From Bacteroidales bacterium (GTDB lineage Bacteria > Bacteroidota > Bacteroidia > Bacteroidales > Azobacteroidaceae), in NCBI GenBank assembly GCA_031551395.1, contig JAVBNR010000006.1, positions 25,554 through 89,553 of the forward strand: a stretch of 64,000 nt of DNA, given 5' to 3'. Positions 2 to 52,003 of the stretch are shown piece by piece (position 1 is the stretch's first letter; the number at the start of each line of letters is the position of its first letter). A program made the position numbers and the translations under genes. Under the pieces are notes generated by a model that saw only the letters and a program-made list of their open reading frames with translations, did no database searches and was not told the DNA's origin.

Positions 2-1123
2 GAACTATTGGGGAATGTGATTCCGTTTTGGGAAAAACATTCTGTTGACAAAGAATTCGGAGGGTATTTTACTTGCCTTGACCGGACAGGAAGTGTGTTC
101 GATACCGACAAATTCATGTGGTTACAGGGGCGTGAAGTTTATATGTTTTCACTTTTTTATAATCAGATCGAAAAAAAACAGGCTTGGTTAGATATCGCTT
201 TACATGGAGCCGAATTCATGAAAAAATACGGACGGGACAACGATGGGAATTGGTATTTTTCATTAACCCGCGAAGGAAAACCGATTGTGCAGCCGTACAA
301 TATTTTTTCCGATTGCTTTGCCGCGATGGGATTCGGGGAACTTTATAAGGCGACAAACAATCCGGAGCATAAGCAGATCGCAGTAGATGCTTATTATAAC
401 ATCATTCGCAAGCAAAATAATCCGAAAGGCATTTACAACAAGTTATATCCGGGAACACGTCCGATGAGGAACTTTGCTCTTCCTATGATCTTGAGTAATC
501 TTTCTCTTATTCTGGAAGATATTTTGGAAGAGGGGACTGTTGAGCGATTGTTGAAACCGTTGACCGATGAGATATTAGGGGTTTTCTATCAGGAAGATTC
601 CGGATTGATATTGGAAAATGTAGCTCCTGACGGTGGTTTCTGTGATTGCTTTGAAGGCCGGTCGGTCAATCCGGGACACACCATTGAGGCCATGTGGTTT
701 TTAATGGATATAGGTGTTCGTCTTAAAGATAATGCTTTGATACAGAAAGCTTCGGAAGTTATTCTGAATACAATAAGTTATGGCTGGGATCAAAAGTACG
801 GAGGTGTTTTTTATTTCATGGACATCAAAGGCTATCCGCAGCAACAATTGGAATGGGACCAGAAACTTTGGTGGGTACATATCGAGACCCTCATTGCAAT
901 GGCTAAAGCTTACCGGTTGACCGGAAAAGAAGAATTCAGAAAATGGTTTCTGACGGTTCACGACTATACCTGGAATCATTTTAAAGATAAGGAATATCCC
1001 GAGTGGTTCGGATATCTGAACCGGCAGGGAGAACCTTTCTTGACGCTTAAAGGCGGTAAATGGAAAGGCTGTTTTCACGTACCCAGAGGTTTGTATCAGG
1101 TGTGGAAAACATTGGAAGATTAA
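2..1123 (+). CDS. nanE: N-acylglucosamine 2-epimerase (AGE family, Bacteroides NanE-like); 5'-truncated by the window edge
   Basis: The frame is open from base 2 (ELLGNVIPFW...). Motifs KFMWLQGREV, NPGHTIEAMWF, KLWWVHIE and GKWKGCFHVPR match GlcNAc/ManNAc 2-epimerases. The true start lies upstream of the window. Confidence 0.9.
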   Translation, partial: ELLGNVIPFWEKHSVDKEFGGYFTCLDRTGSVFDTDKFMWLQGREVYMFSLFYNQIEKKQAWLDIALHGAEFMKKYGRDNDGNWYFSLTREGKPIVQPYNIFSDCFAAMGFGELYKATNNPEHKQIAVDAYYNIIRKQNNPKGIYNKLYPGTRPMRNFALPMILSNLSLILEDILEEGTVERLLKPLTDEILGVFYQEDSGLILENVAPDGGFCDCFEGRSVNPGHTIEAMWFLMDIGVRLKDNALIQKASEVILNTISYGWDQKYGGVFYFMDIKGYPQQQLEWDQKLWWVHIETLIAMAKAYRLTGKEEFRKWFLTVHDYTWNHFKDKEYPEWFGYLNRQGEPFLTLKGGKWKGCFHVPRGLYQVWKTLED

Positions 1124-1160
1124 ATTTTGAATAATAAATTTTTATTTAATAATCGTTTTT

Positions 1161-4100
1161 ATGAAGAAAACCCTTTTTTTGATCCTCATGTGTATCGCAT
1201 ATCTCCATGCAAATGCACAAAATCGTCAGGTAACAGGGACGGTAAAGGATGGTAAGACAGGAGAAATGATTGTTGGTGCCTCTATTATTATAAAAGGTAC
1301 AACTTCCGGTGCTACATCAGACTCTGATGGAATATTTTCTATTAATGTTTCTAATGAAAAAACAGTATTATTAATTTCTTATTTAGGGTATTCTACTCAA
1401 GAAATTAACGTAGGGAGCCGAAATCATGTTGATGTAAATCTTTTGGAAGATGCAGTCAATTTGAATGAAGTGATCGTCGTGGGATATTCAACACAAAAGA
1501 AAGTAAATCTGACAGGAGCGGTTGCTGTTGTAACCGGCGATGAGATTGGAAAACGCATGACAGTCAGTTTATCTAATGCTTTGCAAGGAACAATGCCCGG
1601 TGTAACCATTCAACAAACATCCGGAGAACCGGGAGTTGATGGAGGTACGATTAAGGTTCGAGGGACAGGTTCGCTTTATGCGGGTACATCTCCTCTTGTT
1701 CTGATTGATGGAATGGAAATGTCTATCGATCAGATCGATCCGAACACGATAGAGTCTGTTACTACATTGAAAGATGCAGCATCAGCCTCTATTTATGGTT
1801 CTCGTGCTGCTAACGGAGTTATTCTTATTACAACGAAACGAGGAAAAGAAGGTCCGGTTAAAGTTTCTTATAAAGGTACGCTCTCTGCTCAATTAGCGAC
1901 AAATTTGCCGGAGCCGGTTTCAACCGTACAATTTATGGAACAAACGAACTTAGCTTATAAAAATCTGGGAACAAACCAACCTTATGATCCGGCTTTGATT
2001 GAAGAATACCGCAATTATAGAGCAGATAACTGGAATCGTTTTGAGACAGATTGGAAAGGTGAAATTTTGAAAGATTACGCTTTTTTGACAGATCAAACGG
2101 TTAGTGTTAGCGGAGGGAGTAAAAATCTTTCTTTTATGGGTGTTGGAAATTACGTTTATCAAAATGGATTGATCGATAATAATAATTATTCCCGGTTTAG
2201 TCTTCGTATGAACATGGATGCTCAGATCAGAAGCTGGATCAAATTCTCTTTTGATGCGAATGCTGTAGAAGGAAAACGTACGACACCGTCTGTTAATTCA
2301 GCCAAATCCATTATAAACAAATCATTATATATGCCAGGAGTTCTTCCCGGAATTAACGCGGATGGAACTTGGGGAGCAGGCAAAAATGCGGATAATCCGA
2401 TTGCTTCGGCCAGAGTAGGAGGTACGAGTGACACAAAAACTCCGGATGTGACAATGAATGCAACGCTTACGATTACTCCAATCAATAATTTGAATTTGAT
2501 CGGACAATATAGCAGACGCACAGTTACGAATAAAGGTCGAAGTTTTATTCGTAAGTGGGATTACTATGATAGAGGAGTTTATCAAGGACAGGCTCCACTT
2601 ACAATGGAAGGTCTTACTGAAAGTTGGAATGAAAATCTTCGGAACTATTATCGGTTTCAAGCTAATTATAAATTGAAAGTGAAAGAACATGATATAAGCT
2701 TACTTGGAGGTTTTCAGGCAGAAGATAATACATATAAAAATATCAGTGTAGGTAAAGGTGGCTTTGATTTCCCCGGATATGAATATTTATCGAATGGAAC
2801 AGGTCAGGCTTCTGCTACAGGAGGTGCGACAGATTGGTCAATGGCCTCTTTTTATGCACGATTGAATTATATTTATGCGAATAAATATTTAATGGAAGTG
2901 AATGGACGCTGGGATGCTTCTTCCCGCTTTGCAAAAGATTTGAGATGGAGTCTGTTTCCATCCGTATCATTAGGATGGATCCTTACTGAAGAACAATTTA
3001 TGAAGGGGATTGATGTTCTTTCTCATGCGAAGATCAGAACATCTTACGGTTTATTGGGAAATCAAAACTTAAATTCAAATTACCCGGCTTGGTCAGTCGT
3101 TTCTCCCGGATATAGCTATTGGTTTGGAAAAACCTTGAATCAGGGAGTTGCAGTTACGACCATGTCAAATCCGAATATCACATGGGAAAAATCGACTCAA
3201 TTCGATGTGGGTTTGGATCTGGGATTCTGGAACAACAGGCTTTCGTTTACCGGAGACTTTTACATCAAAGATGTTAATGATATGCTGATGACTTTCCCGC
3301 CTCCTTATTTTGAAGGATTGAATGCTGCATACAGTAATGCCGCCAAAATGAGGAATACCGGTTGGGAAATTGCCGTCACTTACAAAGGAAAAACAGGTGC
3401 TGTCAATTATGGCGCCACTTTCCTGTTGGATGATGTTAAAAATGAGGTGCTTGACCTGAAAGGACGTACTTATCAGGACAAATCGATTGTGGTAGGTTAT
3501 CCATACAACGGACAATGGGGTTATGTAACCGACGGGTATTACCAGACGGTTCCGGAAACATTGGATGCTCCTTATTTTGCGACAAAAACGCCGAAAGTGG
3601 GTTATGTAAAATATGTCAATCAGAATCCGGATGTAGATAATATTATCGATCAGAACGATCAGATTTTTCTTGGAGACCCATTCCCTCATTACAATTTCGG
3701 ATTGAAACTGAATGCCGACTGGAAAGGGTTGGATGCGATGGTATTCTTCCAGGGAGTAGGAAAAAGAGCTGCTTTCATGTCGGGAATCGGGTTGGTTCCT
3801 TTTGCGAACGGATCTTCGATGTTCACACATCAGTTGGATAGCTGGACGACTGAAAATCCGAATGCGGCTTATCCGATCTTGTTGCCGGAAGCTAATGCCG
3901 GCGATAATTTCCAGAAATCGGATAAATGGGTCAAAAGTGGCGCTTACGGTCGTTTGAAAACAGTGGAAATCGGCTATACGTTGCCTTCAAGGTTGACTAA
4001 AAAATGGCAGATGGATAATGTTCGTTTCTTCTTAAATGGACAAAACTTACTTACTATCAGTGATTTTTACAAAGGATATGATCCTGAAGTCTCTTATGGA

Positions 4101-4169
4101 GGTAGTCTTGGCGGGGAGTTTTATCCGATTATGAGGACTTTTACTTTTGGTCTTGACATTAAATTTTAA
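1161..4169 (+). CDS. susC: SusC/RagA TonB-dependent transporter
   Basis: Signal peptide, carboxypeptidase-like N-domain, plug motifs (VVVGY, LKDAASASIYGSRAANGVILITTK), C-terminal Phe, followed by SusD. Confidence 0.97.
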   Translation: MKKTLFLILMCIAYLHANAQNRQVTGTVKDGKTGEMIVGASIIIKGTTSGATSDSDGIFSINVSNEKTVLLISYLGYSTQEINVGSRNHVDVNLLEDAVNLNEVIVVGYSTQKKVNLTGAVAVVTGDEIGKRMTVSLSNALQGTMPGVTIQQTSGEPGVDGGTIKVRGTGSLYAGTSPLVLIDGMEMSIDQIDPNTIESVTTLKDAASASIYGSRAANGVILITTKRGKEGPVKVSYKGTLSAQLATNLPEPVSTVQFMEQTNLAYKNLGTNQPYDPALIEEYRNYRADNWNRFETDWKGEILKDYAFLTDQTVSVSGGSKNLSFMGVGNYVYQNGLIDNNNYSRFSLRMNMDAQIRSWIKFSFDANAVEGKRTTPSVNSAKSIINKSLYMPGVLPGINADGTWGAGKNADNPIASARVGGTSDTKTPDVTMNATLTITPINNLNLIGQYSRRTVTNKGRSFIRKWDYYDRGVYQGQAPLTMEGLTESWNENLRNYYRFQANYKLKVKEHDISLLGGFQAEDNTYKNISVGKGGFDFPGYEYLSNGTGQASATGGATDWSMASFYARLNYIYANKYLMEVNGRWDASSRFAKDLRWSLFPSVSLGWILTEEQFMKGIDVLSHAKIRTSYGLLGNQNLNSNYPAWSVVSPGYSYWFGKTLNQGVAVTTMSNPNITWEKSTQFDVGLDLGFWNNRLSFTGDFYIKDVNDMLMTFPPPYFEGLNAAYSNAAKMRNTGWEIAVTYKGKTGAVNYGATFLLDDVKNEVLDLKGRTYQDKSIVVGYPYNGQWGYVTDGYYQTVPETLDAPYFATKTPKVGYVKYVNQNPDVDNIIDQNDQIFLGDPFPHYNFGLKLNADWKGLDAMVFFQGVGKRAAFMSGIGLVPFANGSSMFTHQLDSWTTENPNAAYPILLPEANAGDNFQKSDKWVKSGAYGRLKTVEIGYTLPSRLTKKWQMDNVRFFLNGQNLLTISDFYKGYDPEVSYGGSLGGEFYPIMRTFTFGLDIKF

Positions 4170-4180
4170 TTTTTATAAAG

Positions 4181-6040
4181 ATGAGAATTATGAAAAATAC
4201 ATATAAAATTATCGTTGTATTCGTTGCTCTTCTTTTTACGGCCTGTGATGATTATCTCGACAGAGAGCCGATGAGCGACTATCTTTCCGGTACGTTTTAT
4301 AACTCGGAGGCTGCGATTAAACAAGGGACAAACGGTGTATACCAAAAAGTGTATATGGACTTTAACGGAAGTATTCCTGCTATTGTATTATTTGATATGT
4401 ACACAGGTTTAGGAATAGAACGGAATGTGGATAATAGTGTGGGCGCCGGAGGTGCCATGGCAACTTCTTTTATCTGGGAGCAACTTTGGGCGGATCTGTA
4501 TCAGGGAGTTGCAAGATGCAATACTGTACTCGACGGCGCAGTTCCTTATATGGATCAATTGCAGAAATCCGAAAAGGCGCTGCAATATTTGGCAGAGATT
4601 AAGACGATGAGGGCTTATTTCTATTACTATTTGATCTATACTTATGGTAAAATTCCGTTTTTTACCAAATCGGTTACTGAAGCCGATTGGAAAACAGCGA
4701 CCCGCCAGCCGATTGAAGATATTCTTCCCGTTTTATTCGATGATTTGGATGATGCTGCGAAATACCTTCCGTGGAGACATGTTGCAAGTGCGGATTGGGG
4801 ACGTGTAGATCGTTCTTTTGCCATGGGATTGAAAGCCCGGATTGCATTGAATGCCGGAAGTTTGAATATCAATGGTAATGGGAAAACTTACTTCCAGATC
4901 GCCCGTGATGCGGCTAAAATAGTTATGGATCAAAGTGGCAGAGACTTGTCTCCTGATTACGCCGCTTTATTTACGAAAGCAGGCCAGGCTACCGAAAATT
5001 CAAAGAAAGAAAATATCTTTGAACTCATGTATGGAGGAGAACAGACGGATGCCAATAAGAAATATCATTATATTTCCTGGGGAGAATATTCCCGGAATAT
5101 CGGACAATCGGGTCGTTTCCCGACTCAAATGCTGATTGATACATACGAGATGACAAACGGCAAACGGATCGATGAATCCGGATCCGGATATGATCCTAAA
5201 AAACCATTTGAAAACCGGGATAAACGCTTGCGTCATACTATTTATACTCATGGAGATACTTGTATCGCACGGTTGAATATGGATGATAACTCCAGACAAA
5301 AATTCATTCTGGATATTTATTTTGATAAGATCAAGTACATCAAGACAGACGGTACGACAGAAACAAAAAATAACATGGACCGCAATAGTAATGTGTCTCA
5401 GTACGGGTTTGCTGAAAGCGGAGTTGGCTATCTGTGGAAAAAATACAACCATTATGATGATGAACCGGCAGCTTCTCCTACTTATAATTATGTAATCATG
5501 CGTTTTTCCGAAATCTTGTTGACTTATGCAGAAGCAAAAATCGAATTGAACGAGATCGATGAATCGGTTTATTCTGCTATTGACCGTGTTAGGAATCGGG
5601 TGGGACAACCGGATCTCAGAAGCGTAGATCCTACAAGAGCAGGAAATCAAAATAAAATGCGGCAAATTGTTCGCCGAGAACGGAAAGTAGAATTCATTGA
5701 CGAAGGACTCCATCTCTTTGACATGAGAAGATGGAAAATCGGAGATCTTGAAAATAAACAGCCGACTTATGGATATCCGGTTTTAGCGAATGTGGATAAA
5801 CTCTCGCTGAACATAGATAGTTATGCATTGGCTACATCCGATATGGTTCCTAAATATGGTGCCGCAGGTTCCAGAGAGGATTTGAATGATATCCCTGATT
5901 ATTCCGCTTTTGCATCCAAATTACGGGTTCGTGATAAAAATCGTTACTGGAACGATGCGTTTTATTTGTCTCCGATTTCTCAGGCTGAATTGAATAAAGC
6001 GCCTCAACTGAGACCTAATAATCCGGGTTATTCCGATTAA
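4181..6040 (+). CDS. susD: RagB/SusD nutrient-binding lipoprotein (start may be 4190)
   Basis: Lipobox FTAC-DD; motifs RFSEILLTYAEA and RRERKVEFIDEG..LFDMRRW; directly follows susC. Confidence 0.96.
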   Translation: MRIMKNTYKIIVVFVALLFTACDDYLDREPMSDYLSGTFYNSEAAIKQGTNGVYQKVYMDFNGSIPAIVLFDMYTGLGIERNVDNSVGAGGAMATSFIWEQLWADLYQGVARCNTVLDGAVPYMDQLQKSEKALQYLAEIKTMRAYFYYYLIYTYGKIPFFTKSVTEADWKTATRQPIEDILPVLFDDLDDAAKYLPWRHVASADWGRVDRSFAMGLKARIALNAGSLNINGNGKTYFQIARDAAKIVMDQSGRDLSPDYAALFTKAGQATENSKKENIFELMYGGEQTDANKKYHYISWGEYSRNIGQSGRFPTQMLIDTYEMTNGKRIDESGSGYDPKKPFENRDKRLRHTIYTHGDTCIARLNMDDNSRQKFILDIYFDKIKYIKTDGTTETKNNMDRNSNVSQYGFAESGVGYLWKKYNHYDDEPAASPTYNYVIMRFSEILLTYAEAKIELNEIDESVYSAIDRVRNRVGQPDLRSVDPTRAGNQNKMRQIVRRERKVEFIDEGLHLFDMRRWKIGDLENKQPTYGYPVLANVDKLSLNIDSYALATSDMVPKYGAAGSREDLNDIPDYSAFASKLRVRDKNRYWNDAFYLSPISQAELNKAPQLRPNNPGYSD

Positions 6041-6052
6041 AAAAAGAATAAG

Positions 6053-7384
6053 ATGAAACATTTACTTTATGGCATTATCGGATTGTTCACAGCTCTGTTG
6101 TTTCAGAGTTGTGGCTCCGATAGTCCGGATCCGGATCCAACTCCGGCATCAACCAATAACTATTTTTTATGGGTCGATGCGACAGCTAATTTTCCGCGTT
6201 TGTCCAACAGCCAGGATTCTATTACAAAATATGTAGTCATGGCGAAAGAATCCGGATTTACCGATTTGGTAGTGGATGTTCGTCCGATTAGCGGGGAAGT
6301 GTTGTATAACAGTACGATTGCCACTCAATTGAAAGAATGGAAAGGTTTTTCCCGGACAGCTACGTTTGATTATCTGAATGCTTTTATTCTTGCAGCCAAA
6401 GCGAATGGCTTGAATGTTTATGCTTCGATCAATACATTCACAGGCGGACATTTATATTCTCCGTTTTGGGAACAAGCCAACAATGGGGCAAGGCAGGTGC
6501 TGGCAACACAGCATCCGGATTGGATTTCGAAAAGCTATGTGTGGACAGGGTCTTCGGGTAAAATAGAATCCATGTGGACTTATTACGGTGGAAAAGGATC
6601 TAAAACAGCTGCTTTTCTGAACCCGTCGAATCAGGACGCAAGGGCTTATATGTTGTCTGTTATCAATGAGATTGTAACTAAATACGATGTCAAAGGTATT
6701 GTCCTTGACCGGGGGCGTTTCGATAGTCTGGAGTCGGAATTCAGTGATGTGACGCGTGCTGCTTTTGAAAGTTATATCGGACAAAAATTAACGAATTGGC
6801 CGGATGATGTTTTCAAATGGACAGGTAGCGGTACTAAAATCGAAGGTCCGCATTATAAAAAATGGTTGGAATTCAGGGCTTCTGTCATTTATAACTTTTT
6901 CAAAGAGGCTAAGTCCAAAGTGAAAGCGGTTAATAAAGAATTTGCAGCTTACGTGGGTGCCTGGTATTCCACATACTATAATGAAGGAGTTAATTGGGCC
7001 AGCCAAACGTATGATCCGAGTGCCAAATATTCATGGGCTACAACTGATTATAAAAAATATGGTTATGCCGAAGAACTGGATTTCATTATGACCGGATGTT
7101 ATTCAGGAACAGCTACCGGTGTGAATAATTATATATCCCAATCACAGGAAGCGATCAAGAATGTTATTCCTATTGCTTCCGGATTGTATGTGGATGATTA
7201 TAACACGATCGAAAAGAATAATGGAGCAGGAAAAGGGAAGACCGCTTTTTATGATTGTTTGGTTGCCGCACGTAAGGGTACGAAAAACATCATGGTATTC
7301 GATATGGTGCACATGAATGATGAATTATATCAGAATGGGAGTACCCCCAAATATTGGGATGTTGTAAAATCTATTCTAAAATAA
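6053..7384 (+). CDS. GHL10/DUF187-like putative glycoside hydrolase, lipoprotein
   Basis: Lipobox FQSC-GSD; TIM-barrel motifs LVVDVRP..G, FLNPS and GIVLDRGRFD. Confidence 0.75.
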   Translation: MKHLLYGIIGLFTALLFQSCGSDSPDPDPTPASTNNYFLWVDATANFPRLSNSQDSITKYVVMAKESGFTDLVVDVRPISGEVLYNSTIATQLKEWKGFSRTATFDYLNAFILAAKANGLNVYASINTFTGGHLYSPFWEQANNGARQVLATQHPDWISKSYVWTGSSGKIESMWTYYGGKGSKTAAFLNPSNQDARAYMLSVINEIVTKYDVKGIVLDRGRFDSLESEFSDVTRAAFESYIGQKLTNWPDDVFKWTGSGTKIEGPHYKKWLEFRASVIYNFFKEAKSKVKAVNKEFAAYVGAWYSTYYNEGVNWASQTYDPSAKYSWATTDYKKYGYAEELDFIMTGCYSGTATGVNNYISQSQEAIKNVIPIASGLYVDDYNTIEKNNGAGKGKTAFYDCLVAARKGTKNIMVFDMVHMNDELYQNGSTPKYWDVVKSILK

Positions 7385-7394
7385 AGTAGAATCA

Positions 7395-9377
7395 ATGAGA
7401 CAACTCAAACAAACAGGATGTTTATTCTTTTTCTTCTTATTGGGAAGTCTGTGTTTATCTTACGGACAGTCAGGTGTTTCCATAGAAGCTGCCAGCCGGG
7501 ATATCACGCTCACAGTCAGAGGACCGGAAAGAGTAATCAGTTCAGTCAACCCCTCTGAAGAAAAATCTTTGGATAACGGAATTGTTTTATTGTCATCGAA
7601 ATACGGACAATCCGTTTCTTCCAATAAGAATCGGATTTTAGTGCAGGTCGACGATAAAATGAAAGTGACTAAAGTCCTTTCCGGACAGCTTGCTGATATG
7701 GCAATTCCTCAACAGGGCTTTGTTTTGATGGCTTCCGGCGATAACGACAAGAAATTCCTTTCGGAAAATTTCAAGGAAGGAGATGTTCTGAAACTGCGTA
7801 TCAATGGAGAAATCAAGGCTTTAGCAGAAGTGATTGCTTCCGGAGGAAAAGAGAATTCGTTCGATATCCGGTTCGATAAAGAAACCATATACACTTCGTT
7901 GAAAAAAGAAGAACTGATTTCCGGAGAAGTTGTTCATTTCAATCGGAAAAACGGCTATAAAATGATCGTTGAGGCAAATGGAAAAGAAATACAATCTGTT
8001 CGCATTGCTCCAAACGGAACATTTTCTTTTCCGGTTCGACTGAATGAAGGAGTGAACTATTTTGATGTAAAAATGACGGATTCAAAGAAAACACTTTCGA
8101 CGGCATCTTTTATGATCTACCGTAAAAAAGTGAATACGGCGAAACCTGAAATAGTGATGTGGGTTGAGCAATTTCCGAATGCGCTTACTCTGACGAGTGA
8201 AAATGCCATAGAAGAAATGATGCTGAAATGCAAAGAGGCGGGCGTAACTGCTTTCGGACTGGATGTGAAAGGTCCTGAAGGTTATGTTTCTTACAAGAAA
8301 AACGATCTGTCTCAATCGCCTTATTTTACATCGACCATCAATCCGAAAAAGAAAGTAGAGCCTTCTGGCATGGATCTGCTGGAGTCTTTTGTGGAACTGG
8401 CACATAAGCATGACATGAAAGTATACGCAAGCTTCAACTTTTTTACCGAAGGGAATGTGACGACCAACGACTATGCGATTTTGAAAGGCCATCCCGGATG
8501 GGAAGAAATCGTGCAACGTCCTGAAGATAAGGGTAAACTGTTGAAAATATCTGAAAGTACGGCCGGACAGGAAGCCCGGGCTGGAAAAAGAATTGTCCTG
8601 GGATTTGTCAATCCGGCTAATAAGGACGTTCAGGATTTTCAATTGCTGCGAGTGGAAGAGGTACTTAAAAATTATGCCGTCGACGGAGTAGTCATGGACA
8701 GATGCCGTTATGACAACCTGTATGCCGATTTTAGTGATGTTTCCAAACAGAAATTTGCGGAATATCTCCGGCAAGAAGGAAAGGAGCTGGAACGATTTCC
8801 TGCAGATGCTTTTCTGATCGATGAAAATGGTAAAATGATCGAAGGGAAGTATTACATGGAATGGATTACTTTCCGTTCGGGAGTCATCAAACAATTTACG
8901 GATCGAGTCCGGATGCTGGTCGATAAATACAAAAAAGAAAAGAATCCGGATTTAAAACTGGCTGCTTATGTCGGTTCCTGGTTTGAAGTATACTGGCAAA
9001 ACGGAGTCAACTGGTCGAGTCGGAATTTTCGGTATAACGAGCGGCTTCATTTTCCTGAAAATCGTTTATATACTGATAAATATTATCAAACCAGTTATAC
9101 CGGAAACATTGATTTTCTGATGATCGGGACTTATTATAAAACAGCGAAGGAAGTCAGTAAATACATCACGCTTGGTAATATCCTGACCAATGGAGAACTC
9201 CCGTTGTACGGATCCATGAGCTTACCTGATCTGAAAACCGATGAGCAAGCTCAGGTTTTTGCTGCTTCGCTAACAAATTCGTCCGGTTTGATGTTGTTTG
9301 ATTTGTGTTATGTCGATTGGAAAACCTTTATAGGAAATCTCTTGCAAGCAATAGAAGAAAGTAATAAACAAAAATAA
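7395..9377 (+). CDS. GHL10/DUF187-like putative glycoside hydrolase with ~250 aa N-terminal accessory region
   Basis: Sec-type signal; LDVKGPEG, FVNPAN and DGVVMDRCRYD; the catalytic part is paralogous to 6053..7384 (shared W..FR and AAYVG.W). Confidence 0.72.
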   Translation: MRQLKQTGCLFFFFLLGSLCLSYGQSGVSIEAASRDITLTVRGPERVISSVNPSEEKSLDNGIVLLSSKYGQSVSSNKNRILVQVDDKMKVTKVLSGQLADMAIPQQGFVLMASGDNDKKFLSENFKEGDVLKLRINGEIKALAEVIASGGKENSFDIRFDKETIYTSLKKEELISGEVVHFNRKNGYKMIVEANGKEIQSVRIAPNGTFSFPVRLNEGVNYFDVKMTDSKKTLSTASFMIYRKKVNTAKPEIVMWVEQFPNALTLTSENAIEEMMLKCKEAGVTAFGLDVKGPEGYVSYKKNDLSQSPYFTSTINPKKKVEPSGMDLLESFVELAHKHDMKVYASFNFFTEGNVTTNDYAILKGHPGWEEIVQRPEDKGKLLKISESTAGQEARAGKRIVLGFVNPANKDVQDFQLLRVEEVLKNYAVDGVVMDRCRYDNLYADFSDVSKQKFAEYLRQEGKELERFPADAFLIDENGKMIEGKYYMEWITFRSGVIKQFTDRVRMLVDKYKKEKNPDLKLAAYVGSWFEVYWQNGVNWSSRNFRYNERLHFPENRLYTDKYYQTSYTGNIDFLMIGTYYKTAKEVSKYITLGNILTNGELPLYGSMSLPDLKTDEQAQVFAASLTNSSGLMLFDLCYVDWKTFIGNLLQAIEESNKQK

Positions 9378-9401
9378 TAAAATCTTAAATCAGAATAAAG
9401 T

Positions 9402-11222
9402 ATGGATACATTAAGAGTAAAATGGCTGAAATATTTAGCCTTGATGCTGGTGGCAGGATTGGCATTGCCGGCATGTAATGACGAAGAAGACTCACGGCCG
9501 TATGAAGATGCGATGATTGTTGCAGCTTATGTAAACGGTACGATGGTGTCGTCCAATAATTTGTCATCAAATCCGACCCAGACTACAATTACGTTGGCTC
9601 CTGGAACCGATTTGACCCATCTGAAGATAAAACTGACTACGATCAACGGAGACCTGGTCGATTTTCCGACAGATGTGGAGACAAACTATACAGAGCCGAT
9701 GGATGTTAAAATCAGAAGCTACAACGGAGGAGATGTAACAGTCAAATTCCATGTTGTTTCAAAACCTTTATTGGTTGATTTCTATATCGAAGGAGTGAAT
9801 GTACCGAAAGAAAATGTACATTTCGGAGAATCTACAATTATCGCTCAGGTACCTACAGGGACAAACCTGACGGCTTTGAAAGTAACAATGGGATTCAAAA
9901 ACGGGGAGCTCTCCGGTTTTACGAACGGCGTGGCTATGAATTATACAAATCCGGTGTCTTTCAATGTTATCGGAGTTGATGGAACTGTATACCCTTATAA
10001 GTTGATGATTACAGATCAGGTAGTCGGCCCGGCAAGTATTCAGAACGTGAAAGCTAATGATGCTGAATCCGTTAGTGTTACGGTCGATGCAAGTGGAAAT
10101 ACGCAAGTATATTATAAGACATTAACGAACTTTGCCAGCGCTGCGCTTACCATCCAAACCGGATTCGGAAATGAATTTGTGGGTTTCACTAATGGTAGTG
10201 TTGTGAATTTGTGGGCTTCTCCAAAAGTTAAGATTATGGGTACGGATGGCGTTGTAAAAGAATTTACATTCCTGCCTCCTAAATTACAACCGGTAGAAGC
10301 ATTCAGGAAGTCGCCTGCAGACATGGGTTTCGGAGCTGATGGAGGTGCATCTCTCTGTTTTAGTGGAAACTATATCGTTGCTTCGACTCATAACGGAACA
10401 CCGGGTATTCATTATTATGATGCAACCGGAACTAAAGTGGGGACAATGAAATTACCTGCCGGTGTGGATATGGGTAATGCGGTTACCGGATTGCGTAAAA
10501 TAGCATCGGATGATAAAGGCGCTGTTATCGGAGTGAACCTGGCGGCCGGAGGAAGCGTGTCTACTTCATATAATATTTATAAATGGAATAATGTAACGGA
10601 TCAGAATCCGACAATTCTTTGTAGCTTTACAGCTTCAGAACTGGGATTGACGGCAACACGGACTAATGGTGTCAACGTACAGGGAAGTCTGGATGGAAAT
10701 GCCGTGGTTACTGTTCCGATCACAGCCAGTAAAGTGGTTTTGAAATGGACGATTCAGAACGGGACATTGGTAAATGCAAAACCAGAAACTGTCAGTCTTG
10801 AAAATGAAAGTAACTTTGGTAACTATTCGGCCGTAGAACAATACCCGGGTAAAGCAACAACATTCGTTGGAGCGCTTGCTACAGCAAACTTCAGCGGACT
10901 TCGTTCTTATTTAGGTTCTGCTCCGGCGGTCAGTGTTGCCGGATCGACTACCGACCTTCGTATGAAGACAGTAGACGGACGGGTATATCTGGCTCACACA
11001 GTCTGGAATCAGGGAGCTGCCAAACATGTTTTCTGCTTCAGGGATGTGACGGATAATAATGATGCCGCATATAAATTCAATATGATGTGGGATGACGCTT
11101 TCATGGCGACTGCTTCAAACGGAAATGCAACCAATGATGCCGATTTCGGCTCTATCAATGGGAAGTTATATGTTGCATTCCTGGGTACTAATGGCGGTGT
11201 TGTGTGCTATATTTTACATTAA
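9402..11222 (+). CDS. Surface lipoprotein with about three Ig-like repeats (DUF5018-like) and a beta-rich C-terminal domain; probable surface glycan-binding protein
   Basis: Lipobox LPAC-NDEED; internal repeats APGTDLTHLKIK / PTGTNLTALKVT and NYTEPMDVKI / NYTNPVSFNV; position inside the PUL. Confidence 0.65.
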   Translation: MDTLRVKWLKYLALMLVAGLALPACNDEEDSRPYEDAMIVAAYVNGTMVSSNNLSSNPTQTTITLAPGTDLTHLKIKLTTINGDLVDFPTDVETNYTEPMDVKIRSYNGGDVTVKFHVVSKPLLVDFYIEGVNVPKENVHFGESTIIAQVPTGTNLTALKVTMGFKNGELSGFTNGVAMNYTNPVSFNVIGVDGTVYPYKLMITDQVVGPASIQNVKANDAESVSVTVDASGNTQVYYKTLTNFASAALTIQTGFGNEFVGFTNGSVVNLWASPKVKIMGTDGVVKEFTFLPPKLQPVEAFRKSPADMGFGADGGASLCFSGNYIVASTHNGTPGIHYYDATGTKVGTMKLPAGVDMGNAVTGLRKIASDDKGAVIGVNLAAGGSVSTSYNIYKWNNVTDQNPTILCSFTASELGLTATRTNGVNVQGSLDGNAVVTVPITASKVVLKWTIQNGTLVNAKPETVSLENESNFGNYSAVEQYPGKATTFVGALATANFSGLRSYLGSAPAVSVAGSTTDLRMKTVDGRVYLAHTVWNQGAAKHVFCFRDVTDNNDAAYKFNMMWDDAFMATASNGNATNDADFGSINGKLYVAFLGTNGGVVCYILH

Positions 11223-11234
11223 ATAAATGAACCG

Positions 11235-11270
11235 TAGGCGAGTAGATTGTCTGCTCGCCTATCTGTTTTT
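11235..11270 (+). terminator. Intra-PUL hairpin with T-rich tail
   Basis: 12-bp stem TAGGCGAGTAGA / TCTGCTCGCCTA (one G-U), 3-nt loop, then TCTGTTTTT. Confidence 0.65.
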
Positions 11271-11286
11271 AAGGAAAGAACTTCAT

Positions 11287-12483
11287 ATGAAGAAAATAAT
11301 ACTATTACTATTGTGTATTTCGAATTTCTTTTTAGCCTGCTCGGATGATAAACCGAATCAGGGAAAAGAAGTTCCGGGACCTGAAGAAACACCTGTCCGG
11401 GCGGTTTGGATTCCTGACCCTTCTCATACAACCTGTATGCATACTTATCAAAATGTGCTGAATACCGTCAATTTGTTGGATGAACTACATATCAACACCG
11501 TGTATTTATGTGCCTGGGCAAGAACCCGAACGATTTATAAAAGTCCGGTGCTGGTAGCCAATTCGACCTATAAAAGTGCGGATGAAGGATATTTGTTTAA
11601 AGATTATATGGCAGCATATCATTCTCCGGCAGCAAGTCCGACAGGAGATCCGGTCAAAGACCTGATTGCCGAAGCGCATAAAAAAAATATCAAAGTCATT
11701 TTCTGGTTTGAATACGGATTTATGGCATCTACCGGAGTAACTCCGTCTTCTAATCCCCTCCTGGCTAAAAATCCGGATTGGATGAGTAAAAACACGAACG
11801 GAACCCAAGCCAATTACAATGGTACAGATTATTATTTCAATGCTTATGATCCTAAAGTACAGAATTTTATGCTTTCGTTAATCGAAGAATCCATGACATT
11901 ATACCCGGAAATTGACGGGATTCAGGGCGATGATCGGATGCCGGCCATGCCACGTAATTCAGGATATGACGATTATACCGTGAATCGTTATAAAGCAGAG
12001 CATAATAATGTGGCTCCAACGACAGATTACAATAATACCGAATGGGTTCAATGGCGATTGAATATTCTCAATGAATTTGGCAAGACATTATACCAGAGAG
12101 TTAAAGCAAAAAAATCGACAGCATTGATGTGTTTCTCTCCGAATCCTTATCCGTGGTGCGAGCAAAATCTGATGCAAAATTGGCCTCAGTGGATTGCAAA
12201 CGGGATTGTCGACGTATTATCTGTTCAATGCTACAGAAACTCGATTGAAGCTTACAAATCTACACTTTATGAGGCGAGAAGCTATTGTAAAGCGAAAACT
12301 TCCAAACGTATTCTTAATCCGGGAATTATCTTGAAAAACGGAAGTGCGATCATGTCTCCGGAGCTCTTGAGACAACAATTGGAAGCCAATAAGGAAATCT
12401 ATACTAACGGAGAAGCTTTTTTCTTTATAGATGGCCTTTATGATAAAAATGTGCAGGAAGTATTGAAATCGTTTTACAAATAA
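11287..12483 (+). CDS. GHL10/DUF187-like putative glycoside hydrolase, lipoprotein
   Basis: Start moved from 11227 to ATG 11287 (MKKIILLLLCISNFFLAC-SDD lipobox); RAVWI, WFEYGF and DGIQGDDR motifs. Confidence 0.75.
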   Translation: MKKIILLLLCISNFFLACSDDKPNQGKEVPGPEETPVRAVWIPDPSHTTCMHTYQNVLNTVNLLDELHINTVYLCAWARTRTIYKSPVLVANSTYKSADEGYLFKDYMAAYHSPAASPTGDPVKDLIAEAHKKNIKVIFWFEYGFMASTGVTPSSNPLLAKNPDWMSKNTNGTQANYNGTDYYFNAYDPKVQNFMLSLIEESMTLYPEIDGIQGDDRMPAMPRNSGYDDYTVNRYKAEHNNVAPTTDYNNTEWVQWRLNILNEFGKTLYQRVKAKKSTALMCFSPNPYPWCEQNLMQNWPQWIANGIVDVLSVQCYRNSIEAYKSTLYEARSYCKAKTSKRILNPGIILKNGSAIMSPELLRQQLEANKEIYTNGEAFFFIDGLYDKNVQEVLKSFYK

Positions 12484-12520
12484 TATAGAAAGAAATATTG
12501 TTGTGTCCTATTAAAAAAGA

Positions 12521-13630
12521 ATGATCATGGAAAACAAAAACAGAAGAGATTTTCTCAGACAGGTATCAATTGCCGGAGCCGCTGTTGCTGCGACTTCTCT
12601 GATCCCTTCATGTGCAAATAAACCGGAAAATGAGAATAAAACAGCAGGCGCTTCGACTCTGGATGTTCAAAGTAAACTGATTGTCCCACCTGCCAAAGGA
12701 TTAAAAATATCCGGAACTTTTCTGGATGAAATTTCCCATGATATTCCCCATCAAAACTGGGGAGAAAAAGAATGGGATCAGGATTTTGCCTATATGAAAG
12801 CAATAGGCATCGATACTGTCATTATGATTCGCTCCGGGTACCGTAAGTTCATTACGTATCCTTCGGAGTATCTGATGAAAAAACACGGTTGTTACATGCC
12901 TTCCGTAGACCTGTTGGATATGTTCTTGCGTCTGGCTGAAAAACACGGGCTTCAATTTTATTTCGGACTGTATGACTCCGGGAAATACTGGGATACAGGC
13001 GATTTAACCTGGGAAATTGAAGATAATAAATACGTTATTGATGAAGTTTGGAAAAAATACGGACATCACAAAAGCTTTGGCGGATGGTATATCAGCGGAG
13101 AAATCAGTCGCAAAACGAAAGGTGCTATCCATGCTTTCCGTGCGATGGGACAACAATGTAAAGATGTTTCCAACGGTTTGCCGACTTTCATATCTCCCTG
13201 GATCGACGGGAAGAAAGCTGTCATGGCTTCGACCGGACAGCTCAGCAAAAGAGATGCGGTTTCCATTCAGGAGCATGAAAAAGAATGGGGGGAGATCTTT
13301 GACGGGATCAAAGGGGCTGTAGACGCCTGCGCTTTTCAGGACGGCCATATCGATTATGACGAATTGGATGCGTTTTTTGAAGTGAATAAGAAAATGGCCG
13401 ATCAATATGGGATGCAATGCTGGACAAATGCCGAATCGTTCGACCGGGATATGCCGATCAAATTTTTTCCGATCAAATTCGATAAATTACGAATGAAATT
13501 AGAAGCTGCCGCTCGTGCCGGGTATGACAAAGCAATAACATTCGAGTTCTCCCATTTCATGAGTCCTCAGTCGGCTTACATGCAGGCAGGACACTTGTAT
13601 GACCGTTACAGAGAATATTTCCGGATATAA
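12521..13630 (+). CDS. DUF4434-family TIM-barrel putative glycosidase with a twin-arginine signal
   Basis: RRDFLRQ Tat motif followed by LIPSC; TFLDEISHDIPHQNW, GWYISGE, FQDG and WTNAESF motifs. Confidence 0.75.
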   Translation: MIMENKNRRDFLRQVSIAGAAVAATSLIPSCANKPENENKTAGASTLDVQSKLIVPPAKGLKISGTFLDEISHDIPHQNWGEKEWDQDFAYMKAIGIDTVIMIRSGYRKFITYPSEYLMKKHGCYMPSVDLLDMFLRLAEKHGLQFYFGLYDSGKYWDTGDLTWEIEDNKYVIDEVWKKYGHHKSFGGWYISGEISRKTKGAIHAFRAMGQQCKDVSNGLPTFISPWIDGKKAVMASTGQLSKRDAVSIQEHEKEWGEIFDGIKGAVDACAFQDGHIDYDELDAFFEVNKKMADQYGMQCWTNAESFDRDMPIKFFPIKFDKLRMKLEAAARAGYDKAITFEFSHFMSPQSAYMQAGHLYDRYREYFRI

Positions 13631-13659
13631 TCAAATAATCAACGCTAGACGAACAGATA

Positions 13660-15075
13660 ATGAAAAATACAGAAAATATTCAATATGCTTTTTTCCTCAC
13701 AATCATAGCCGCTTTGGGAGGATTTTTATTCGGTTACGATGCTGCCGTTATCTCGGGTACGACCGAAGATGTTAAAGCGTTTTATCATTTAACCGATATC
13801 CAGCAAGGTTGGTACGTCGGATGTGCTATTTTAGGTTCTATTATCGGTGTTTTGCTTGCGGGAAAATTAAGTGACCTTTGGGGTCGCAGGCCTGTGATGA
13901 TGTTCGCGGCGATCCTGTTTTTCGCTTCAGGAATCGGTTGTGCTTTTTATTCCACATTCGACCAGTTGGTCCTTTATAGGATTGTCGGAGGAGTCGGAAT
14001 CGGAGTCGCTTCCATCACGGCACCATTGTACATTTCCGAAATATCGATTCCTCGTTATCGGGGACGGATGGTTTCTTGCTATCAGTTGGCTATAACGATA
14101 GGAATATTAGGATCATATCTGGCCAATTCTGCCATTTTGAAATGGTCTCAGTCTGTCGTTTATGATTCCGGATTTTTAAAATTAATCATTAATGATCAGG
14201 TTTGGAGGGGAATGTTGGGTATGGAGGCTCTTCCGGCTTTTTTGTTTATGATTGTTTTATTTTTCATCCCGGAAAGTCCTCGTTGGCTGGTTGTGAAAAA
14301 TAAAGATGATTCTGCTTTGAAAATATTGAAGAAAATTTTTCCGCCGGATAAAGCTCGTTCGGAAATTGCAGAGATACACGATATTATCAATAAAGAAGAA
14401 AAATCAGATTGGCGCTTATTGCTCAAACCGGGCTTTCGCACCGCTTTGATTATTGGCGTTTGCCTGGCTATTTTAGGGCAGTTCATGGGAGTAAACGCTG
14501 TTTTTTATTACGGCCCTAAATTTTTGGGAGAAGCGGGTCTGGGTAAGACGGCTTCGCTGGATCTACAGGTTTGGGTCGGTCTGGTCAATGTCCTTTCTAC
14601 AATTTTAGCGATGTTTGTGATTGACCGGATCGGAAGGAAAAAACTCATTTATATCGGTGTCTCCGGAATGGTAATACTCCTGTTTTGTATCGGGTTGTTT
14701 TTTTATGGAGTATCTGCCGGAATGGCCATCTCTACCTGGGTATTGTTTGGCTTGATACTGGGTTATGTCTTTAGTAGCGCCATTTCCATCAGTGCTGTTA
14801 TTTTTGTCCTTCTATCAGAAATGTATCCTGTTAAAGTCCGTGGATCGGCAATGTCCATAGCCGGATTTTCTTTGTGGGTGGGTACCTACCTGATCGGACA
14901 ACTGACTCCCTGGCTGACTACGCGCTTGGCCGCTTCTGGTGTCTTTTGGTTGTTTGGAGTCATGTGTATCCCTTATTTATTGATTACTTATTTTCTGGTT
15001 CCCGAAACAACCGGGAAATCTTTGGAAGAAATCGAACGGATGTGGGAAGCGAAAGGGGAGAGAGCTAAGAGTTAA
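13660..15075 (+). CDS. MFS sugar porter (XylE/AraE-like sugar:H+ symporter)
   Basis: GGFLFGYD, D.WGRR, PESPRWL, DRIGRK and PETTGKSLEEIE sugar-porter signatures; about 12 hydrophobic segments. Confidence 0.93.
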   Translation: MKNTENIQYAFFLTIIAALGGFLFGYDAAVISGTTEDVKAFYHLTDIQQGWYVGCAILGSIIGVLLAGKLSDLWGRRPVMMFAAILFFASGIGCAFYSTFDQLVLYRIVGGVGIGVASITAPLYISEISIPRYRGRMVSCYQLAITIGILGSYLANSAILKWSQSVVYDSGFLKLIINDQVWRGMLGMEALPAFLFMIVLFFIPESPRWLVVKNKDDSALKILKKIFPPDKARSEIAEIHDIINKEEKSDWRLLLKPGFRTALIIGVCLAILGQFMGVNAVFYYGPKFLGEAGLGKTASLDLQVWVGLVNVLSTILAMFVIDRIGRKKLIYIGVSGMVILLFCIGLFFYGVSAGMAISTWVLFGLILGYVFSSAISISAVIFVLLSEMYPVKVRGSAMSIAGFSLWVGTYLIGQLTPWLTTRLAASGVFWLFGVMCIPYLLITYFLVPETTGKSLEEIERMWEAKGERAKS

Positions 15076-15224: not shown

Positions 15225-15267
15225 AAAAGAAATCAGGCAGCTACTTTTTACCGTAACTGCCTGATTT
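15225..15267 (-). terminator. Intrinsic terminator after tRNA-Met (may also serve the PUL)
   Basis: 11-bp perfect arms AAATCAGGCAG / CTGCCTGATTT, extended by 4 bp on the minus strand, followed by CTTTT. Confidence 0.8.
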
Positions 15268-15273
15268 TCTTTG

Positions 15274-15347
15274 TAGCGCGACCCAGGATTGAACTGGGGA
15301 CCTCATGATTATGAATCATGCGCTCTAACCAGCTGAGCTATCGCGCC
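15274..15347 (-). tRNA. tRNA-Met (CAT), elongator-type; CCA not encoded
   Basis: GGCGCGATAGCTCAGCTGGTTAGAGCG CATGA-TTCATAA-TCATG AGGTCCCCAGTTCAATCCTGGGTCGCGCTA folds as a cloverleaf; no initiator GGG/CCC anticodon stem. An Ile2 (lysidine) identity is not formally excluded. Confidence 0.92.
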
Positions 15348-16009: not shown

Positions 16010-16528
16010 TTAGTTTTTATTTACTGAATTTAGCACTTTCAATCCTGAAAGGTTTATTTTATCGGAATATTTCAATAATAATTTCAAATCAATTTTTCCA
16101 CTTAGAGAGATCATATTGAATTCCTGGTTGTTATCCCCTGAAAGCATAACAAGTTCTTTGACTATGCCTTTTTTGGATTCTTTGATCATAACGATCACGT
16201 TTTGATCATTTTCTTTCAATGTAAGCAGAGGCTCAAAGCCTTGTTTTTTCCGCGTCAATATTTCATAAGCCGAATCATAATATTCTTTGTTGAGTGCCGA
16301 ATCATTGGAGGAGATGATTAAAATATTCTCCAATCCTTTGATCGCTTCTGTCAACTCCGGTTCTTCGGATGTCAGTTTTTCCATTTGCTGAAACATTTTT
16401 TTTCCGATAGACACGATCTCCAGGTTGTCATCTTTCCCGTATTTTTCCAGGAATGAATTGGCAACATCTTGCGCTGAAGTTGAGAAGGCAATGAAACAAG
16501 CGAATAATATGAATATTATTTTTTTCAT
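16010..16528 (-). CDS. DUF4252 family exported protein
   Basis: Signal peptide; V.IGKKMF and ISLSGKID motifs; third gene of the ECF operon. Confidence 0.75.
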   Translation of the reverse strand: MKKIIFILFACFIAFSTSAQDVANSFLEKYGKDDNLEIVSIGKKMFQQMEKLTSEEPELTEAIKGLENILIISSNDSALNKEYYDSAYEILTRKKQGFEPLLTLKENDQNVIVMIKESKKGIVKELVMLSGDNNQEFNMISLSGKIDLKLLLKYSDKINLSGLKVLNSVNKN

Positions 16529-17028: not shown

Positions 17029-17029
17029 T

Positions 17030-51969: not shown

Positions 51970-52003
51970 TAATTGATAATTGAAATTAAATAAACAAAGA
52001 AAT

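Follow-up and report, generated by a model that had tools for sequence, protein, structure and literature searches.

In Bacteroidota, the canonical sialic-acid locus (nanLET/NanOU) comprises the SusC/SusD-like NanO and NanU, a GH33 sialidase, a GH20 enzyme, the lyase NanL or NanA, NanM, an N-acylglucosamine 2-epimerase (AGE, there named 'NanE'), a NanT transporter of the major facilitator superfamily (MFS), and a sialate esterase. Of the proteins with the glycosidase-like domain GHL10, Clostridioides difficile Cwp19 is a peptidoglycan hydrolase (PMC5765458) and Escherichia coli DigH hydrolyzes the denuded glycan of peptidoglycan (PMC12288456). Cwp19 is also the closest structural homolog of EnvSia156, the inverting GH156 exosialidase that has a barrel and a C-terminal β-sandwich (PMC6811678). 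The title of one paper assigns the conversion of starch to maltose to a GHL10 protein of Deinococcus (PMC9967864). Here we analyze a stretch of 64,000 nucleotides from a Bacteroidales bacterium (contig JAVBNR010000006.1 of assembly GCA_031551395.1; the window), in which bases 2-15075 encode an AGE epimerase together with SusC, SusD and three GHL10 proteins. These nine genes form the distal part of a polysaccharide utilization locus (PUL) whose type is conserved in Bacteroidota and, by sound inference from sequence comparison, the epimerase among them has a role independent of sialic acid.

The original prediction for this stretch had proposed a new system, built only from uncharacterized glycosidase families. 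Neither part can be kept as worded: homologous loci are already catalogued as PUL8 and PUL9 of Bacteroides thetaiotaomicron, Cwp19 and DigH have been characterized, and the DUF4434 protein of the region has a solved counterpart, BT_0435 (Protein Data Bank, PDB, 4H41). To our knowledge, none of GHL10, DUF4434, the PF12831 flavoprotein and DUF5009 belongs to a characterized CAZy family. Full-text literature searching on DUF4434, PF12831, GHL10, DUF4985, UPF0748 and N-acetylmannosaminidase found no functional study of the enzymes of these PULs, and a B. thetaiotaomicron fitness paper held nothing on the BT0435-BT0454 locus. The locus family is thus catalogued though functionally orphan, even in the model organism B. 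thetaiotaomicron.

Results

The nine-gene operon

The genes of the region, all on the plus strand in the list of open reading frames (ORFs) of the window, are as follows.

2-1123, plus strand: AGE-family N-acylglucosamine 2-epimerase, predicted to interconvert N-acetylmannosamine (ManNAc) and N-acetylglucosamine (GlcNAc); PF07221, 248 bits; NF052547
1161-4169, plus strand: SusC-type TonB-dependent outer-membrane transporter; TIGR04056, 888.6 bits; Plug and CarboxypepD_reg domains
4181-6040, plus strand: SusD-family surface glycan-binding lipoprotein; PF07980, 153.7 bits; PF14322; lipobox LLFTAC
6053-7384, plus strand: GHL10a, lipoprotein in which DUF4985 follows a GHL10 (β/α)8 barrel at the C-terminus; GHL10 49.4 bits, DUF4985 52.6 bits; lipobox LLFQSC
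7395-9377, plus strand: GHL10b, a signal peptide followed by GHL10 and DUF4985; GHL10 48.4 bits, DUF4985 32 bits (sub-threshold)
9402-11222, plus strand: DUF5018-like surface lipoprotein of 606 amino acids; lipobox LALPAC; BLASTP E=4e-15 to a DUF5018 protein
11287-12483, plus strand: GHL10c, a canonical GHL10 lipoprotein without DUF4985; GHL10 145.3 bits; Cwp19 E=3e-5
12521-13630, plus strand: DUF4434 TIM-barrel protein, predicted to be exported by the twin-arginine translocation (Tat) pathway, ortholog of BT_0435; PF14488, 297.5 bits
13660-15075, plus strand: sugar-porter MFS protein (XylE/GlcP-like), a predicted inner-membrane monosaccharide:H+ symporter; PF00083, 365.6 bits

The composition and tight, co-oriented spacing described in the original prediction (epimerase, SusC/SusD, three GHL10 proteins, a lipoprotein with immunoglobulin-like repeats, DUF4434 and a porter) are all present. 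Every minus-strand ORF of at least 100 amino acids in the region is nested within one of the nine genes. The gaps between them are, in order, 37, 11, 12, 10, 24, 4, 37 and 29 bp, and spacing of only 4-37 bp argues for a single transcript. The susC and susD genes are adjacent and co-oriented, 11 bp apart, as in Sus-like PULs, and the enzyme genes, the surface binding protein and the MFS gene share one co-oriented unit with a hairpin at its end, which is the linkage of a PUL. Chance does not account for the cluster: three other lineages repeat its gene order with proteins that are 71-88% identical, and its families are found together in about 55 of the 80 epimerase loci sampled across Bacteroidota. 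A lipobox or signal peptide is predicted for SusD, for each of the GHL10 proteins and for the DUF5018-like protein. Family scans of the nine proteins and of 16 other window ORFs revealed no GH33/BNR sialidase, no lyase of the dihydrodipicolinate synthase (DHDPS) type, no GH20, no GH18 and no sulfatase, which agrees with the absences noted in the original prediction.

The epimerase is a cytoplasmic protein for which ManNAc/GlcNAc activity is strongly predicted from sequence. The NCBIfam equivalog for AGE, NF052547, scores 653.7 bits (cut-off 600), and the NCBIfam models for cellobiose epimerase and mannose isomerase reach 55.8 and 40.4 bits on the same protein. The solved N-acetylglucosamine 2-epimerase chains 2GZ6 and 6F04 match at E=1e-160/1e-161; among its PDB matches, AGEs range from 1e-161 to 1e-80 and cellobiose epimerases stand at 1e-17. 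The name 'NanE-like' given to it earlier is right in the sense of the Bacteroides 'NanE', which is of the AGE type, and wrong in the sense of the ManNAc-6-phosphate NanE of E. coli. The start of the window removes 13 codons of the gene. The full protein has 386 amino acids, and an identical full-length protein (P0001) exists. The closest relatives, 81-83% identical, come from Dysgonamonadaceae and unclassified Bacteroidia.

The SusC protein has no STN domain and is therefore not coupled to a sigma/anti-sigma pair of the extracytoplasmic function (ECF) type. The DUF5018-like lipoprotein had no match in a Pfam scan. It contains repeated immunoglobulin-like modules, seen as internally repeated BLASTP segment pairs, and a C-terminal domain; its ortholog in a Dysgonamonadaceae relative (76% identical) contains PF16410, and it is probably a surface glycan-binding protein. 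The sugar-porter model TIGR00879 scores 358.5 bits on the MFS protein (cut-off 237.8). The sialate:H+ symporter models give 41-47 bits against cut-offs of 553-604, so that the transporter is not of the NanT type.

Two kinds of epimerase locus in Bacteroidota

We scanned genomes with the epimerase, which gave 80 loci across Bacteroidota; the ORFs within 20 kb were clustered and the recurrent clusters annotated. Two kinds of locus emerged, and they never overlap among the 80. The canonical sialic-acid type (18 of 80) has SusC/SusD, a BNR sialidase, GH20, a DHDPS lyase, NanM, AGE, an MFS transporter and a GDSL esterase. The type of the window (about 55 of 80) spreads across many families of the phylum, and no DHDPS lyase or BNR sialidase lies within the 20-kb neighborhoods of these loci. 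Its recurrent members are a secreted PF12831 flavin adenine dinucleotide (FAD) oxidoreductase (43 loci), a ROK regulator with a helix-turn-helix domain (34), DUF4434 (at least 22) and DUF5009 (14), together with GHL10+DUF4985, GHL10, DUF5018, GDSL esterases in pairs, and a transporter that is either an SSF protein or a sugar porter. GH92, the phosphodiester glycosidase NAGPA, calcineurin-like phosphoesterases, a NagB+PIG-L fusion, CstA, DUF4127, GH89 and GH18 are rarer. The GH92 α-mannosidase occurs in 6 sister loci, usually beside a gene of the GHL10c type, and GH20 and one GH18 are also found among the sister loci. Homologs of DUF4434 and AGE number in the thousands.

The epimerases of the two kinds of locus are 61-83% identical to that of the window and interleave in a distance tree. 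Given also the match to 2GZ6 and 6F04, the same ManNAc/GlcNAc reaction is probable in both. The role of the epimerase independent of sialic acid follows from three observations: the relatives have no nan genes upstream, the two locus types are mutually exclusive, and B. thetaiotaomicron keeps a pair of AGE genes inside its version of the system although, according to the literature, it does not metabolize N-acetylneuraminic acid (Neu5Ac). The comparison of the 80 loci therefore supports the uncoupling of epimerase and sialic-acid enzymes that had been proposed for this stretch.

Syntenic relatives and the upstream genes

The genes upstream of the window were deduced from two syntenic relatives, L083 and L084, in which 8-10 kb upstream of AGE were read. 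In L084, a metagenome-assembled genome of Dysgonamonadaceae, the order is ROK, DUF5009, FAD_oxidored (PF12831), AGE, SusC, SusD, GHL10, GHL10, NAGPA, DUF5018, GHL10, GH92 and DUF4434. In L083 it is MFS, DUF5009, FAD_oxidored, AGE, SusC, SusD, GHL10, GHL10 and onward. The AGE of each is 83% identical to that of the window. The original prediction had held that nanA or nanH directly upstream would speak against it. Neither gene occurs in the upstream sequence of the two relatives, where DUF5009 and FAD_oxidored stand in both and ROK in L084. This part of the system, which the original prediction did not include, would lie immediately beyond the start of the window. DUF5009 is N-acetyltransferase-like and clusters with lysosomal HGSNAT (PMC12423673). 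The FAD oxidoreductase gave only generic Rossmann matches to solved structures.

Two further relatives, L085 and L086, are the closest by GHL10a (82% identity) and keep the order of the window through DUF4434 and MFS; the proteins common to the window and the four relatives are 71-88% identical. In L085 (12-1779) and L086 (191-1958), AGE lacks about 100 N-terminal residues and adjoins an inverted FAD_oxidored fragment of 295 amino acids. This rearrangement at the epimerase gene resembles the published BT0437/BT0453 inversions of B. thetaiotaomicron.

The DUF4434 protein

Export of this protein by the Tat pathway is predicted from the signal model TIGR01409 (20.7 bits, cut-off 16.7) and an RRDFL motif, of which R8, R9 and F11 do not vary among 31 homologs; some of these proteins' relatives are named 'tat pathway signal sequence' in source annotations. 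The match to 4H41, deposited as a 'putative alpha-L-fucosidase', has E=2e-192 and an identity of 88% in the HMMER alignment or 84% over the aligned columns of Foldseek, with template-modeling (TM) scores of 0.78/0.89. A sequence search against solved structures matched nothing beyond 4H41. The predicted model is a TIM barrel with a mean confidence (pLDDT) of 71.5, and its nearest folds after 4H41 are GH5 mannanases, Cwp19 and GH2 glucuronidases. Two invariant residues, Glu194 and Glu305, fall just after predicted strands 4 (186-191) and 7 (299-303), the positions of the catalytic pair in clan GH-A, an assignment that is provisional at this model confidence. The barrel, the glycosidase-like fold neighbors and the two glutamates lead us to infer that DUF4434 is a periplasmic exo-glycosidase.

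Across the families of the phylum, the DUF4434 protein is 68-87% identical in all but one locus, and is more conserved than the epimerase (61-83%), whose gene it adjoins in many loci. It has two forms. The Tat form occurs in Bacteroidales and Prolixibacteraceae, and a sugar-porter MFS gene directly follows in 6 of 8 such loci. The form without a signal, which begins at MKITGTFLDEISH, occurs in Chitinophagaceae, Sphingobacteriales and Cytophagales; its gene sits directly upstream of AGE, the place that the lyase has in nan loci, and an SSF transporter accompanies it in 7 of 14 such loci. The two forms are exemplified by L015 (9006-9947) and L010 (11999-13093), among loci L002-L081, and the split tracks taxonomy. 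That DUF4434 would work in the periplasm in some lineages and in the cytoplasm in others, and that the type of transporter shifts accordingly, implies a substrate that is a small transportable sugar, and most simply its product would be the monosaccharide that the epimerase uses. We also considered DUF4434 as a GH156 enzyme or as a replacement for NanA. Neither is supported: its only sequence match is 4H41, its fold neighbors are GH5, GHL10 and GH2 proteins, and the protein of the window is exported.

The GHL10 proteins

All three proteins exceed the gathering score of Pfam GHL10 (PF02638; 27.9 bits). GHL10b is a paralog of GHL10a (about 27-30% identity) and has an N-terminal extension of about 260 amino acids with a β-sandwich-like region and a weak Glucodextran_B match. 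The AlphaFold2 model of GHL10a (pLDDT 91) found Cwp19 as its best Foldseek match (E=5e-19, TM 0.61/0.74, 15-16% identity), followed by the GH153 domain of PgaB/BpsB (E=4e-12, TM 0.57/0.71) and, at rank 11, by GH156 EnvSia156 (E=4e-10, TM 0.46-0.49); β-amylases are also among the matches listed. The family profile gave the same order against solved structures, with Cwp19 at 1.3e-18, PgaB at 0.011 over a short stretch and EnvSia156 (6RZD) at 0.04 over 30 residues, in addition to weak amylase matches (E=1e-4 to 0.03). Homologs of GHL10a are annotated as YddW/UPF0748, the E. coli YddW being DigH, and some as 'alpha amylase family protein'. PgaB GH153 cleaves partly deacetylated poly-GlcNAc. The known relatives of GHL10a thus act on bacterial N-acetylhexosamine polymers or on sialosides, and none on plant glycans; GHL10a itself is a candidate depolymerase.

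Membership of the GHL10 proteins in GH156 was considered, in view of the published fold relation between Cwp19 and GH156, and rejected. With phmmer they had no match to EnvSia156 at E<=1, the profile match is marginal, and the fold ranks below Cwp19 and PgaB. When the catalytic residues Asp14/His134 of EnvSia156 and its carboxylate triad Arg129/Arg202/Asn346 were compared, only the region of Arg202 aligned (30 residues), with an invariant arginine there (R222). Asp219 of GHL10a is likewise invariant.

Transcription, occurrence and flanking features

One invertebrate-gut metagenome run contains 100% of the sampled words of the sequence, and the metatranscriptome of the same study contains 51%. 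RNA contigs cover most genes of the locus, but a part of the DUF4434 gene has a depth near zero. In situ transcription of the locus is weak: its RNA depth is 1-10, compared to about 166 for the neighboring ECF-sigma operon, the most highly represented stretch. Three features besides the genes mark the region and its end.

11234-11262, plus strand: hairpin with a 13-bp stem, then a T-run; -21.5 kcal/mol; downstream of the DUF5018-like gene and ahead of the probable GHL10c start
15231-15272, plus strand: terminator-like hairpin and T-run that closes the operon; fold -17.3 kcal/mol
15273-15347, minus strand: tRNA-Met (CAT) gene, called by ARAGORN, directly after the end hairpin

The GHL10c ORF, as called mechanically, begins at 11227, 60 nucleotides before the ATG at 11287, and the lipobox FFLAC follows the internal methionine. 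The true start is probably this ATG (398 amino acids), because the orthologs have 398 amino acids and the hairpin at 11234-11262 lies in front of it. This hairpin is possibly an internal attenuator or an mRNA-stabilizing element for the distal transcript. A promoter scan predicted 40 sites, with 40.1 in shuffled sequence, and hence no excess.

In the DNA metagenome run X1, word depth is about 1241 at the bin of the tRNA-Met gene and about 56 elsewhere, probably because this sequence is common to many members of the community. The minus-strand operon at 16010-17530 encodes an ECF sigma factor, an unannotated protein of 167 amino acids and a DUF4252 protein; we rejected it as the regulator of the PUL, since the tRNA gene separates the two, the strands are opposite, and an STN domain is missing from the SusC. 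In the DNA run and in the RNA run, one contig each connects 8150 with 19082 and skips 10.9 kb, the shorter side being 21 letters. A short word common to both places probably misled the assembly, the alternative being a deletion variant without the distal PUL genes. Further along the window, 50710-55453 (plus strand) encodes a Gfo/Idh/MocA oxidoreductase and then a protein of 1157 amino acids that combines HEAT repeats with two stretches of the 3-keto-disaccharide hydrolase (DUF1080) type, a pairing that resembles the 3-keto-glycoside route described for B. thetaiotaomicron BT2156-2160.

Discussion

Proposed pathway

We propose the following route for the locus. At the cell surface, SusD and the DUF5018-like lipoprotein would bind the glycan, and one or more GHL10 lipoproteins would cut it to oligosaccharides, which SusC would carry into the periplasm, as is known for its family. 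There the remaining GHL10 enzyme(s) and the Tat-exported DUF4434 protein would trim them to monosaccharides, including ManNAc and/or GlcNAc; in the full system of the relatives, the secreted PF12831 flavoprotein, the HGSNAT-like DUF5009 acetyltransferase and the esterases may assist this step. The sugar-porter MFS protein would then bring the neutral monosaccharide into the cytoplasm, and AGE would turn ManNAc into GlcNAc for the general GlcNAc pathway. Control of the operon is probably exerted by a ROK-type regulator, whose gene lies upstream in L084 and in many related loci. This scheme would include the direct release of ManNAc from a polymer that the original prediction proposed.

Which glycan is the target

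We favor, at a probability of roughly 0.4, a non-sialic glycan rich in N-acetylhexosamine of the class of bacterial cell-envelope glycopolymers. These would include peptidoglycan strands with ManNAc-GlcNAc-phosphate linkage units, ManNAc-containing secondary wall polymers, and capsules. The preference has three grounds: the characterized GHL10 enzymes act on peptidoglycan, bacterial polymers alone commonly contain ManNAc, and the habitats of the locus type are diverse. The accessory genes fit modified wall polymers (GDSL esterases, DUF5009, NAGPA, calcineurin-like phosphoesterases, NagB+PIG-L, CstA and a divergent D-lactate-dehydrogenase-like gene), and the enzymes among them suggest that the glycan carries O-acetyl groups, has lost part of its N-acetyl groups, and in some cases contains phosphodiester links or mannose. 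The divergent gene, for an FAD/Fe-S protein of about 940 amino acids resembling D-lactate/glycolate oxidases, lies on the minus strand in L007 (3365-6199), L009 (1665-4484) and L010 (3394-6222), one to three genes upstream of the minimal ROK-FAD oxidoreductase-AGE-DUF4434-MFS modules of Prolixibacteraceae, the FAD oxidoreductase not being found in L007. In four other loci, the gene of CstA, whose family transports pyruvate or peptides, comes next after AGE or two genes further on. Together, the two give a hint of a three-carbon acid substituent, lactyl or pyruvyl.

Several points weigh against a bacterial envelope polymer. No enzyme of the locus type has a demonstrated substrate, and we know of no ManNAc-releasing glycosidase family that could serve for comparison. 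The DUF4434 model on which the catalytic residues were placed is only moderately confident. ManNAc is a minor component of wall material and seems too little for an epimerase that is a core, always-present gene. None of the readings accounts for the FAD oxidoreductase. In B. thetaiotaomicron, the BT0453-0449 and BT0439-0443 operons were reported to be induced in vivo (PMC6989115). The mice of the underlying study are reported to have been mono-associated; no foreign bacteria would then have been present, although self-turnover, or control by carbon limitation via BT4338, might still have caused that induction.

The same induction is among the points for the main rival view, that the target is a glycoconjugate of the host or of another eukaryote, with α-linked GlcNAc or glucosamine, mannose and phosphodiesters. 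Candidates would be α-GlcNAc-capped mucin O-glycans, heparosan- or heparan-like chains, glycosylphosphatidylinositol anchors, GlcNAc-P-Man-bearing or otherwise unusual N-glycans, and the wall glycoproteins of fungi or protists. The GHL10 proteins would then be depolymerases resembling endo-N-acetylglucosaminidases, and the epimerase would serve a minor ManNAc stream or salvage. The sister loci hold GH92, the 'uncovering-enzyme' NAGPA, GH89 (NAGLU), GH20, GH18 and the HGSNAT-like DUF5009. Since GH92, NAGPA, GH89 and DUF5009 fit eukaryotic glycoconjugates about as well as bacterial ones, a substrate from other bacteria, as originally proposed, is not established. DUF5018 proteins are typical of N-glycan PULs. 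The GH89 α-N-acetylglucosaminidase BT0438 acts on para-nitrophenyl-α-GlcNAc and on oligosaccharides from heparosan, and both colonic mucin O-glycans and keratan sulfate induce it; BT0439 is present in the secretomes of galacto-oligosaccharide and milk-oligosaccharide cultures; and the B. thetaiotaomicron system adjoins the sialidase/complex N-glycan cluster that starts at BT0455 and includes BT0456-0461. We hold a eukaryotic target to be on the unlikely side. Apart from sialic acid, the common glycans of eukaryotes are free of ManNAc, and the universally conserved AGE-DUF4434 pair would go unexplained; GH92, NAGPA and GH89 are missing from the locus of the window itself; lineages of soil and sediment (Chitinophagaceae, Sphingobacteriaceae, Prolixibacteraceae) have the locus type in abundance; and BT0438 did not act on gastric mucin glycans.

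A system for sialic or other nonulosonic acids of non-canonical design is quite improbable. Here the GHL10+DUF4985 proteins would be inverting sialidases like GH156, and ManNAc would come from a distant lyase or from DUF4434. The structural kinship of Cwp19 and EnvSia156 and the barrel-plus-β-sandwich layout of EnvSia156 are in line with this, as are the Foldseek match of GHL10a to GH156, the contact of the GHL10 profile with 6RZD around Arg202, the gene of DUF4434 in the place of the DHDPS lyase upstream of AGE in many loci, and the GDSL esterases and SSF transporters of the sister loci. However, GHL10a is far closer to Cwp19 and PgaB than to GH156, by sequence and by structure. A periplasmic, glycosidase-like barrel with a pair of glutamates is hard to square with a lyase that feeds a cytoplasmic pathway. 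The transporter of the window is a neutral-sugar porter, none of the roughly 55 loci has a lyase, and B. thetaiotaomicron has the system yet does not use Neu5Ac. It is very improbable indeed that the substrate of the GHL10 proteins is a neutral glycan, for example an α-glucan, with the epimerase co-located and functionally separate. The name 'alpha amylase family protein', the weak profile matches to amylases, the β-amylases found by Foldseek and the starch-to-maltose activity assigned to the Deinococcus protein would agree with it, but the amylase similarities are generic TIM-barrel matches. AGE, DUF4434 and GHL10 turn up together in many families of the phylum, the narrow gaps argue for one transcript, and genes of GlcNAc metabolism (the ROK regulator, NagB+PIG-L, DUF5009) belong to the locus type.

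Significance

PULs are a familiar kind of system, and this family is a large and phylogenetically wide one that makes a good target for the discovery of enzymes. Solving it would probably define new glycoside hydrolase families and explain the retention of AGE in Bacteroides unable to use sialic acid; possibly, it would also reveal a way in which Bacteroidota reuse the amino-sugar polymers of dead microbes or of host surfaces, with a bearing on gut ecology and soil carbon turnover. A bolder form of the bacterial-envelope reading, which we judge unlikely, holds that DUF4434, the secreted PF12831 flavoprotein and AGE form an unrecognized catabolic route that releases ManNAc or GlcNAc from a modified amino sugar or a disaccharide, that the GHL10 proteins are the first nutritional wall-glycan depolymerases in a Sus-like system, and that the family, widespread in gut, soil and sediment, is dedicated to eating the envelopes of other bacteria. 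Candidate reactions of such a route would be a first β-N-acetylmannosaminidase acting on ManNAc-β1,4-GlcNAc, or a phosphorylation-independent route for N-acetylmuramic acid. The comparative map of core genes, the Tat/cytoplasmic switch of DUF4434 and the accessory enzymes offers an experimental entry through BT0435-BT0454.

Comparison with known systems

The counterpart in B. thetaiotaomicron VPI-5482, BT0435-BT0454, shares with the window the DUF4434 protein (BT_0435), AGE (BT0437 and BT0453), the sugar-porter MFS protein (BT0454), SusC/SusD (BT0439/40 and BT0452/51) and two GHL10 proteins annotated as 'family 10 glycosylhydrolase' (BT0447 and BT0449); with the locus type it also shares DUF5009 (BT0446). 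These matches come from published annotations, and our sequence comparison covers BT_0435 only. It differs in having two SusC/SusD units, a segment between the two AGE copies whose orientation can flip, and the additional GH89 BT0438, DUF4855 protein BT0442 and calcineurin-like phosphoesterase BT0448; moreover, it adjoins a GH33 sialidase cluster.

With Cwp19 and DigH, the window proteins have in common membership in Pfam GHL10 and a lipoprotein or secreted location, Cwp19 being the top structural match of GHL10a. GHL10a of the window carries an additional DUF4985 and has an invariant D-R-x-R motif in place of the D-D-Y of Cwp19. The window genes lie in a nutrient-acquisition operon, whereas Cwp19 and DigH function in autolysis or cell division. 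GH156 EnvSia156 and GH153 PgaB/BpsB resemble GHL10a in their barrel architecture, and GH156 also in its C-terminal β-sandwich, but their sequence similarity to GHL10 is marginal and confined to short stretches. The canonical nan locus, finally, shares an AGE of 61-67% identity, a SusC/SusD pair, an MFS gene at the end of the operon and, in the sister loci, GDSL esterases. The locus of the window has no lyase, BNR sialidase, NanM or NanT-type transporter, and its type has GHL10, DUF4434, the FAD oxidoreductase and DUF5009 instead.

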